From: a phage
Assembly (NCBI GenBank): GCA_021525805.1
Contig: GCA_021525805.1_3940.1
Reading direction: 5' to 3' (one strand)
Length of the DNA stretch: 64,000 bases
Shown piece after piece: positions 23,360-24,405 of this stretch. A program made the translations under genes and the position numbers. Under the pieces are notes generated by a model. It saw nothing but the letters and a program-made list of their open reading frames with translations, made no database searches and had not been told where the DNA came from. Position 1 is the first letter of the stretch, and every line of letters starts with the position of its first letter.

Positions 23360-23806
23360 TTAGAAAGGTTTTCTACGTTGCTTGTTAATATTAGCTTTCA
23401 TGGCAGCTAAATGATTTTGCTGTTCAATTAGTCGTGAACGTTCTTGATGGCTAAGTGCCATAGTGTTCACATTCTCAATTGCTTGAGTGGCTTGCTTTAA
23501 AGCTCGACCAATCTTACCAGACATTTTACGTTTTGCAATAGTTGCTTGATGCTTAGGTTCAACCACACGATAACCAACACCCATTGAAGCAACCAGATAA
23601 ATCTTCTCTTCTTTAAGAAGCTTCTCAATAAACTTCTCAAGTCGGTTTAGACGTGTAAGTGCATAAGCCTTCATTTCATCTTCGTACTTAACAATGTCAC
23701 CTTGATAAGTTGGCTTCACAATACCTAAGAAGGTATCCATCTCAGAGTGTGATACAGTGTCACCGTAACTAAACTTTGCTGCTAATGCTTTTGTATTCAT
23801 AATCAA
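23360..23806 (-). CDS. Hypothetical protein (cassette gene 2)
   Basis: 148 aa basic protein; coupled to upstream gene; bracketed by repeat islands. Confidence 0.45.
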
Positions 23807-24405
23807 ACGTTACCTTCTGAAATAACTTCTACAGAAAAACGACCAAAGCGTGGACGCCAATCACCTACACCACAAAGGTTACCAGCATTTTCCAGAACCA
23901 TCAGAAGTTCCTCTCTGGTGATTTGCTCTTCATCGAACATCAAACCGAACTCTACAGACCAGTCACGGAAGATTGGACGGTAGCTCATAACTCGTGCTGT
24001 ACCAATCTTAACAGACTTAGCATAGATAAAATCTGGATTCTTAGCAAGTTCTTGTGGGTTTGCTGGACAGTTCTTGATAGTCATTGGGAAGACTACATCT
24101 GTCAGCATAATGGCTCGGTCAATTACCTTACCAAGTTTGTTGAGTTTTGCACCAGACTTGATACAAGCCTCAATCATCTCACCGTTCATAACAAAACCTA
24201 GCTGCTCATCGTAGTAACAAGAGGTTACCAGTTGACTTTCTGCTAAGAGTGCATAGTCTTCGTCAGTCTTTTTACGTTTACTGGACAGAGACTTGTGATA
24301 TTTTGTCAGAGGGTTTAATGGGTCTGACAACGTATCGTTATGGCTCAAGAAAGGACGAGTACCAGTGATTTTGATATTTAACAGTTTCATAGCATTTAGC
24401 TCCAC
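23803..24405 (-). CDS. Hypothetical protein (cassette gene 1); likely real start ATG at 24390
   Basis: Track start is GTG; ATG at 24390 has GGAG ~9 nt upstream. No recognisable motif. Confidence 0.45.

Follow-up and report, generated by a model that had tools for sequence, protein, structure and literature searches.

Introduction

Systems of the Viral Interference Programmable Repeat (VIPR) type, described in two 2026 bioRxiv preprints from one group, combine a small RAMP-fold protein, Vipr, with usually one accessory gene, vap, and flanking guide-RNA (vrRNA) genes, in each of which 9-16 YNNGG pentamers precede a structured 3' tail (10.64898/2026.04.26.720920, 10.64898/2026.04.26.720927). Here we analysed a 64,000-nucleotide stretch of DNA from a Felix O1-like phage (GenBank assembly GCA_021525805.1, contig GCA_021525805.1_3940.1; the full 64-kb stretch is referred to as the window), in which an original prediction made from the letters alone had singled out an orphan two-gene cassette enclosed by two repeat islands. 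Positions 23017-24827 (minus strand) very probably constitute a complete type II VIPR locus of this phage that would silence a satellite of Escherichia coli.

In the archetypal system, that of phage SUSP1, vrRNAs are expressed during infection as RNAs of roughly 100 nucleotides (nt) that co-purify with Vipr, and matching targets are repressed, the evidence comprising small-RNA sequencing, pull-down, GFP and lambda assays (10.64898/2026.04.26.720920, 10.64898/2026.04.26.720927). With one Vipr protomer per pentamer, protein and RNA form a right-handed filament on which the 3' pseudoknot sits as a cap; Vipr pockets take up the flipped GGY bases, leaving NN to pair with the target strand, which is read as NNxNNx... 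with one target base extruded per unit, and the RNA-DNA hybrid wraps round the non-target strand in an 'R-loop triplex' (10.64898/2026.04.26.720920, 10.64898/2026.04.26.720927). Binding on either strand represses transcription, with no protospacer-adjacent motif (PAM) and no cleavage or nuclease, and the accessory protein Vap1 enhances protection (10.64898/2026.04.26.720920, 10.64898/2026.04.26.720927). The role assigned to VIPR of the SUSP1 type is the RNA-guided silencing of a competing satellite that parasitises the phage lineage (10.64898/2026.04.26.720920).

According to the preprints, VIPR shares the RAMP fold, RRM core, G-loop and thumb with class 1 CRISPR-Cas backbones (Cas7-family, Cascade), and resembles Cas7-type filaments in having one protomer per fixed RNA interval, a thumb that flips bases periodically, and RNA-guided DNA binding with formation of an R-loop. 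In contrast to class 1 CRISPR-Cas, the locus in the window lacks a CRISPR array and cas genes of any kind, cas1/cas2 included; the VIPR guide is a 5-nt tandem repeat with two informative bases per unit and no contiguous spacer, one base in three is skipped instead of one in six, PAM and nuclease are lacking, and the system is encoded by a virulent phage. Phage ICP1 directs a CRISPR-Cas system against the PLE satellite of Vibrio cholerae, a complete type I-F system with spacer acquisition and DNA degradation. In both cases a lytic phage aims an RNA-guided system at a chromosomal satellite that parasitises it, and guide repertoires vary among close phage isolates, tracking satellite variants; unlike the ICP1 system, VIPR silences transcription with two genes and is not known to have any machinery for acquisition.

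Results

Identification of vipr and vap1

Two minus-strand open reading frames (ORFs) occupy 23360-24405 of the window. A phmmer search of the PDB with the product of the upstream ORF matched chain 36pp_D, 'SUSP1 Vipr protein', residues 1-195 aligning to residues 1-195 (E = 1.5e-127). Compared with the products of the SUSP1 genome, Vipr is identical at 191 of 195 residues and Vap1 at 145 of 146. The two genes, taken for orphans at the outset, are thus near-identical to the archetypal pair. The original prediction had suggested profile searches of both proteins: Pfam, NCBIfam and PADLOC gave no family match for either, it was the PDB sequence search that identified Vipr, and the PHROGs families to which the two proteins belong (Table 1) are both of 'unknown function'.

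The vipr ORF extends over 200 amino acids (aa) from a GTG at 24405, while the annotated and structurally solved form has 195 aa and begins at an ATG at 24390 that is preceded by GGAG. Likewise, the vap1 ORF has 148 aa from a TTG at 23806 and 146 aa from the ATG at 23800, the start annotated in wV8, bumzen and SUSP1; the wV8 counterparts are gp95 (the 195-aa protein) and gp94 (the 146-aa protein). The vipr stop codon (TGA, 23805-23803) lies 2 nt ahead of the vap1 ATG, and the genes are therefore coupled, which bears out the prediction of two coupled minus-strand genes, with annotated starts that give slightly shorter proteins.

As a roughly 20-kDa single-RRM RAMP homologue, Vipr has the features of a type II effector. 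The 13 residues that contact GGY, the skipped target base and the non-target strand in SUSP1 Vipr (10.64898/2026.04.26.720927) are all present: H17, K33, R39, E71, M72, K82, G87, K88, R138, C173, D177, W178 and R179. Residue T175, named as part of the pyrimidine pocket (10.64898/2026.04.26.720927), is V175 in the window and in the SUSP1 genome alike; the inconsistency seems to lie in the preprint, the two phages themselves agreeing at this position.

For Vap1, which has no Pfam family, a word-indexed search returned near-identical copies only; it took an exhaustive HMMER search to reach 234 distant homologues, which are similar in size. An alignment-based AlphaFold2 model (predicted local distance difference test, pLDDT, 96.4), used in place of a poor single-sequence model (pLDDT 68.5), predicts a small domain composed of helix-strand-helix, long helix and beta-hairpin, followed by a long helical hairpin. 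Foldseek comparison of the model with the PDB gave no significant match. The modelled N-terminal domain hints at a winged-helix-like fold, in agreement with the label 'WH-like' used in the preprint. The gene adjoins vipr, as the accessory gene of a VIPR locus does; DNA binding by Vap1 is a prediction.

Guide-RNA genes in the repeat islands

On the minus strand, each island consists of two units, each made up of a conserved element of 38-40 nt, a YNNGG tract and a tail of ~31 nt. The four resulting vrRNA genes are designated A to D (Table 1). When both strands of the window were scanned, these four were the only YNNGG-periodic tracts, all on the minus strand, and the tail motifs occurred nowhere else. 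The position of the gene pair between two repeat islands was thereby confirmed, the islands being far from chance; instead of merely bracketing the cassette, they encode, in our reading, its guide RNAs and are functional parts of the system. The hairpin plus T-run previously placed upstream of the genes does exist, but it is the 3' tail of vrRNA B (24498-24467).

Loci of relatives and satellites are cited by L numbers. Eighteen related loci were retrieved from IMG/VR with the Vipr protein as query, which together with the window gave 19 loci and 71 vrRNAs. Tract length was an exact multiple of 5 in 69 of the 71 tracts. Over 702 units from 56 unique tracts, the information content was 1.46 bits at Y, 0.07 and 0.09 bits at the two N positions, and 1.14 and 1.82 bits at the two G positions. 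This unit logo is the published VIPR signature of a conserved GGY scaffold and hypervariable NN. Family-wide, G is present at unit position 4 in just 82% of units. The 17 units of vrRNA A are one above the published range. Relatives carry 3-5 vrRNAs in total, with 1-3 per side. The vrRNA B tract is identical in L019 and L021 and recurs in L022 with one Y change. Within it, TCTGG TTTGG TAAGG is present twice, an internal duplication.

Tail types alternate, with type 1 following tracts A and C and type 2 following B and D. An H-type pseudoknot fits both types: 100% of cells pair, with compensatory changes in three pairs per type, compared with only 26-48% pairing in slid controls. Examples are GTCTCA/TGAGAC versus AATCG/CGATT for type 1, and GTGG/CCAC versus AAGG/CCTT and GGTAG/CTACC versus GGCAG/CTGCC for type 2. 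The tails agree with the published pseudoknot and do not prove it independently, because independent variants are few and the structure was derived from the same sequences. Rfam contained no vrRNA family; its single match (E = 0.77) is a chance match.

Decoded targets in an E. coli satellite

In the published search rule each GGY is replaced by one wildcard, NN is kept and both strands are searched; only 20 of the 41 SUSP1-clade guides could be assigned to targets, 18 of these 20 match a satellite, and the satellite targeted by most guides encodes a baseplate protein resembling that of the phage (10.64898/2026.04.26.720920, 10.64898/2026.04.26.720927). When the phage gene at 9275-10075 (plus strand) of the window, which adjoins the tape-measure gene, was used as query, 474 of 5,426 complete E. 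coli genomes proved to carry a chromosomal gene for a 'phage baseplate protein', often with >90% nucleotide identity over ~560 nt. At the protein level, the satellite and phage sequences share 80% identity, and their first ~185 residues are nearly the same. Pfam matches indicate that the satellite islands, of ~11 kb, contain baseplate, tape-measure, HNH and small unknown genes and a large serine recombinase; large serine recombinases have integrated them at four or more sites (yciI/tonB, yecN/DUF72, ymdF/wrbA and mdtG/lpxL). The satellites examined were L005 (5750-17350), L006-L012 and L052-L055. A whole-satellite megablast query carried host flank (tonB) and hence matched nearly all genomes; it was used only to pick divergent satellites.

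The 12 satellite islands were scanned with a skip of 1 nt, and vrRNAs A, C and D matched satellite genes (Table 1). vrRNA A scored 28-30/34 at the same position in seven satellites and vrRNA C 20-22/26 in nine, while the 21/22 match of vrRNA D was found in satellite L053 as well. At all three target sites the skipped base is codon position 3; such skipping of the wobble position is described in the VIPR preprint (10.64898/2026.04.26.720920, 10.64898/2026.04.26.720927). Order-shuffled guides (100 each) reached maxima of 24/34, 21/28 and 18/22, and skip lengths of 0, 2 and 3 gave background values of at most 23, 18 and 17. By a binomial model (p = 0.25 per base, ~5x10^5 positions) the chance expectation is ~6x10^-9 for A, ~1x10^-4 for C and ~2x10^-6 for D. 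No guide has a site of at least 70% in the window itself. Family-wide, 40 of 56 guides scored at least 80% against eight satellites, as opposed to 1 of 56 shuffled guides, which reproduces the published satellite-targeting conclusion on independent data.

The best satellite site of vrRNA B (21/30) was rejected as not significant and lies in AT-rich intergenic DNA. The exact 10-dinucleotide gapped core of this guide had 0 matches in IMG/VR and 7 chance matches in GTDB species genomes, all in unrelated AT-rich taxa and none in an enterobacterial species genome. In a speculative reading, vrRNA B could be directed against another kind of competitor or against a gene of the host.

One satellite carries a vrRNA-like gene of its own in the absence of vipr (L008:4118-4207, minus strand). 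It comprises 13 YNNGG units and a type-2-like tail, GTGGATTGTCGTAGCCACGTTAAAAATCGAC, whose second stem shows compensatory changes relative to the phage tails, in agreement with the remark in the VIPR preprint that satellites carry vrRNAs (10.64898/2026.04.26.720920, 10.64898/2026.04.26.720927). Several satellites also encode an 'AP2/ERF family' protein; one of these (L007:2628-3152) is 42% identical over 105 aa to the product of an HNH-AP2 homing-endonuclease-like ORF of the phage (27361-27894, minus strand), which lies between the ligase block and the polymerase gene.

Layout of the locus and transcription signals

The locus runs in the order promoter, two vrRNA genes, vipr, vap1, terminator and two further vrRNA genes, and every sequence-level feature by which type II VIPR and its SUSP1 clade are recognised was found. 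As in SUSP1, it lies between the thyA-frd block and the ligase gene, has the same promoter, leader, pre-tract elements and both tail types, carries four vrRNAs and has a satellite as target class. It differs in the array (one vrRNA upstream and three downstream in SUSP1, two and two in the window) and in three of the four guide sequences, and the window phage is a Felixounavirus, not a Suspvirus. From the protein identity of 98-99% and the conserved RNA elements we infer that the window vrRNAs would be expressed, loaded into Vipr and capable of repression.

The sole strong sigma-70-like promoter found, TTGACA-16-TATACT, sits upstream of the two upstream vrRNA genes. It probably drives these vrRNAs, and probably vipr-vap1 too; vrRNAs A and B are probably co-transcribed with vipr because they are located between this promoter and vipr. 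The terminator predicted downstream of the cassette was recovered as a T-run hairpin at 23348-23333, after the second gene. The two genes do not, however, form the self-contained transcription unit that had been proposed, because the only strong promoter-like site (24827-24800) is found upstream of the distal island. A strongly hydrophobic ORF of 48 aa (24835-24981, minus strand), whose SUSP1 counterpart differs in sequence, lies between this promoter and the ligase gene.

A pre-tract element of 38-40 nt precedes every guide tract and occurs nowhere else in the window. Its two variants share the core GTCTT..TAAGAGGGT.TTTTAA. These elements may be weak vrRNA promoters or processing signals, and the two copies of the hairpin variant are likely the deletion endpoints in vipr-less relatives.

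The 2-kb region round the cassette has matches of 80-99% identity in 231 phage records, nearly all from Felix O1-like myoviruses (Felixounavirus and its relatives) that infect Escherichia, Salmonella, Shigella and Citrobacter. The neighbourhood is a conserved minus-strand early/replication block; besides the cassette and small unknown genes, it contains those for thymidylate synthase and dihydrofolate reductase and those for DNA ligase, an HNH-AP2 homing endonuclease and DNA polymerase, so that the predicted placement between thyA-DHFR and ligase-polymerase also stood. In every record seen, Vipr and Vap1 are annotated as 'hypothetical'. Pieces of the guide tracts bear older GenBank labels, namely 'direct repeat sequence4 possible binding site of StbAB' in KhF3 (L001:1993-2003) and 'DR_4' in wV8 (L002:4288-4345 and 5681-5738), and the genome papers on Felix O1 and UAB_Phi87 contain no discussion of the repeats. 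All these annotations are now superseded.

Table 1. Positions of the VIPR features in the window and of the decoded guide targets in satellite loci.
Feature	Position	Strand	Details
sigma-70-like promoter TTGACA-16-TATACT	24800..24827	minus	11/12 consensus matches; same in SUSP1 and vipr-less relatives
conserved leader, promoter to first pre-tract element	24770..24799	minus	identical in SUSP1
pre-tract element, hairpin variant (CATCACTTAAGAGTCTTCTAAGAGGGTTTTTAAGTGATG)	24731..24769	minus	copy 1 of direct repeat flanking the cassette
vrRNA A guide tract, 17 YNNGG units	24646..24730	minus	
vrRNA A 3' tail, type-1 H-type pseudoknot (GTAG/CTAC, GTCTCA/TGAGAC)	24615..24645	minus	
pre-tract element, second variant (CCTTTTTAAAAGGTCTTTAAGAGGGTTTTTTAATGAGG)	24574..24611	minus	motif scan
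vrRNA B guide tract, 15 YNNGG units	24499..24573	minus	
vrRNA B 3' tail, type-2 pseudoknot (GTGG/CCAC, GGTAG/CTACC)	24467..24498	minus	
vipr	23803..24390	minus	195-aa RAMP-fold guide-RNA-binding effector; PDB 36pp_D, SUSP1 identity, phrog_4652
vap1	23360..23800	minus	146-aa VIPR accessory protein; SUSP1 Vap1 identity, phrog_5926
intrinsic-terminator-like hairpin then T-run, after vap1	23333..23348	minus	sequence
pre-tract element, second variant	23295..23332	minus	motif scan
vrRNA C guide tract, 13 YNNGG units	23230..23294	minus	
vrRNA C 3' tail, type-1 pseudoknot	23198..23229	minus	second stem AATCG/CGATT covaries with that of vrRNA A
pre-tract element, hairpin variant	23157..23196	minus	copy 2 of direct repeat (D7) flanking the cassette
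vrRNA D guide tract, 11 YNNGG units	23102..23156	minus	differs from SUSP1 vrRNA4 at two NN bases only
vrRNA D 3' tail, type-2 pseudoknot (AAGG/CCTT, GGCAG/CTGCC)	23070..23101	minus	both stems covary with those of vrRNA B
terminal hairpin and T-run closing the locus	23017..23069	minus	overlaps promoter-like site of next gene
vrRNA A target	L005:9623-9672		30/34 guide bases; 185-aa first gene of main satellite operon
vrRNA C target	L011:6892-6855		22/26, first 11 dinucleotides perfect; antisense to 107-aa gene, same operon
vrRNA D target	L005:17078-17047		21/22; 222 nt into large serine-recombinase gene

Distribution and vipr-less relatives

Vipr was found by tblastn with at least 90% identity in 118 phage records, and distant homologues (32-43%) occur in Pseudomonas, Gordonia, Mycobacterium and Listonella phages. 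In ~105 of the 238-260 records with these flanks, Felix O1 among them, the junction is short and vipr-vap1 is missing. The module is accessory and exchangeable, as had been surmised, because these ~105 relatives (counted against 238) lack both genes; presence/absence mapping thus does not place the two proteins among core proteins shared by all relatives. A 147-kb record under the name Staphylococcus phage SA1 includes a vipr gene that shares 99% identity with that of the window (GU169904.1:91679-92263), with matching flanks; rather than a Staphylococcus VIPR, this most likely reflects mixing or contamination in the assembly.

In short junctions, promoter, leader and hairpin element are still present, as are one or two tracts and the 'downstream' type-2 tail; these junctions look like products of recombination between the repeated elements flanking the cassette (direct repeat D7 and related copies). 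Vipr-less loci with one or two intact vrRNA genes are L013:1478-1749, L014:1478-1754 and L046-L049. In the whole genome of NRG857CP1 (L050, L051) tblastn detected no homologue of Vipr or Vap1 (E 0.56 or worse); its two guides nevertheless score 26/30 and 19/22 on satellite genes, and those of BPSELC-1 score 20/24 and 25/28. Vipr-plus relatives have guides identical or near-identical to those of NRG857CP1, which suggests that this phage lost vipr-vap1 recently. Orphan vrRNA genes in vipr-less phages are not mentioned in the VIPR preprint.

Discussion

The window phage has every sequence component of a VIPR system, and three of its four guides match satellite genes. Upon infection of a satellite-bearing host, vrRNAs A and C would block the head of the main satellite operon, and vrRNA D would block the recombinase needed for satellite excision. 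Their joint action would stop the satellite from hijacking tail and baseplate components of the phage, and silencing of satellite excision and expression would protect phage yield.

Several points weigh against this interpretation. Expression, ribonucleoprotein loading and silencing in the window phage are transferred from SUSP1, and should be read as expectations by analogy. vrRNA B has no detectable target in the satellites scanned, its best score being at the level of shuffled guides. vrRNA A has four degenerate units (TG or AG for GG) and four mismatches to its best target, because of which its efficiency is uncertain. vrRNAs C and D sit beyond the vap1 terminator, and the target survey covered 12 of ~474 satellites.

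The original prediction, which was partly supported as a whole, had speculated on host takeover or anti-defence. It was right in so far as VIPR is a conflict system; the best-supported role is the silencing of a competing satellite, not takeover or anti-defence. It could still be argued that the guides, or at least vrRNA B, silence host or defence genes and not a rival element, given that vrRNA B is kept in four phages (the window phage, L019, L021 and L022) without a satellite target, that VIPR is programmable in principle against any double-stranded DNA, and that satellites are often anti-phage, so that silencing one is counter-defence in a broad sense. We consider host or defence genes very unlikely as the targets, since three of the four guides map to satellite genes well above all controls, the same holds for satellite matches of the 40 family guides and for the satellite assignments of the preprint in the SUSP1 clade, and the exact vrRNA B core pattern matches no enterobacterial species genome. 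Another reading would see in the locus a decaying, non-functional remnant heading to the vipr-less state of Felix O1: about half of the relatives lack vipr-vap1, vrRNA A is degenerate and mismatched as described, and 4 of the 11 units of vrRNA D have TG or AG for GG. Yet both ORFs are intact, 98-99% identical to the experimentally active SUSP1 proteins and equipped with the functional residues, and promoter, tails and 5-nt register are intact as well. Moreover, vrRNA D, despite its degenerate units, scores 21/22 on its target and nearly equals SUSP1 vrRNA4, and degeneracy at unit position 4 is common family-wide. Decay is thus highly improbable.

Short tandem repeats that flank a gene pair amid replication genes (thyA, frd, ligase, polymerase) also recall centromere-like or iteron-like protein-binding DNA, with the pair encoding partition or replication-initiation proteins; the labels in the KhF3 and wV8 records and the winged-helix-like domain predicted in Vap1 would fit. 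The probability of this is close to nil. Neither protein matches ParM, ParR, StbA, StbB or Rep families (Pfam, NCBIfam, PADLOC), and the 195-aa protein is a solved RNA-binding protein of RAMP fold. The SUSP1 tracts are transcribed into the RNAs of roughly 100 nt that co-purify with Vipr, the NN bases are hypervariable among close relatives with GGY fixed, which is the opposite of a conserved iteron, and, read through the NN code, the guides fit coding sequences of the satellite, the skip falling in wobble phase. A partition locus of the StbA/StbB or ParM/ParR kind was rejected as a class, there being no ParM/ParA-type NTPase and no ParR/StbA-type protein by Pfam, NCBIfam, PADLOC and PHROGs. 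A CRISPR-Cas mini-array was rejected too: where CRISPR arrays have repeats of about 23-50 nt, the units here are of 5 nt and have no spacers, Pfam, NCBIfam and PADLOC gave no Cas match, and there are no neighbouring cas genes.

We therefore return to a VIPR locus directed against a satellite. Such a locus is already known and is not new, because the preprints covered 41 vrRNAs of the SUSP1 VIPR clade and a structure has been deposited (PDB 36pp). VIPR is a minimal, PAM-free, RNA-guided binder of double-stranded DNA whose code is non-contiguous, and the CRISPR RAMP effectors have been proposed to descend from it. The window locus changes nothing in principle, because VIPR has been described, solved and shown to be programmable with proteins that are 98-99% identical. 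What is added here is an exact map of four guide genes with their decoded E. coli satellite targets, an independent re-derivation of the rule by which 1 nt is skipped, the correction of old annotations ('DR_4', 'possible binding site of StbAB', 'hypothetical protein'), and the finding that guide genes persist in the absence of the effector in many relatives, the type phage Felix O1 among them.

Small leads remain in the vrRNA B target, the pre-tract elements and the orphan guides. For the last, which concern ~45% of Felix O1-like phages, a speculative and rather doubtful proposal is that orphan vrRNAs, instead of being only the scars of a deletion, serve as trans-loaded guides or as Vipr decoys, with the 39/40-nt hairpin element (24769-24731 and 23196-23157) as the recombination substrate of the module. 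If this were true, the Vipr of a co-infecting relative would load the orphan guides, or the orphans would compete for Vipr, and recombination at the hairpin element would let the effector module come and go while the guide stays.

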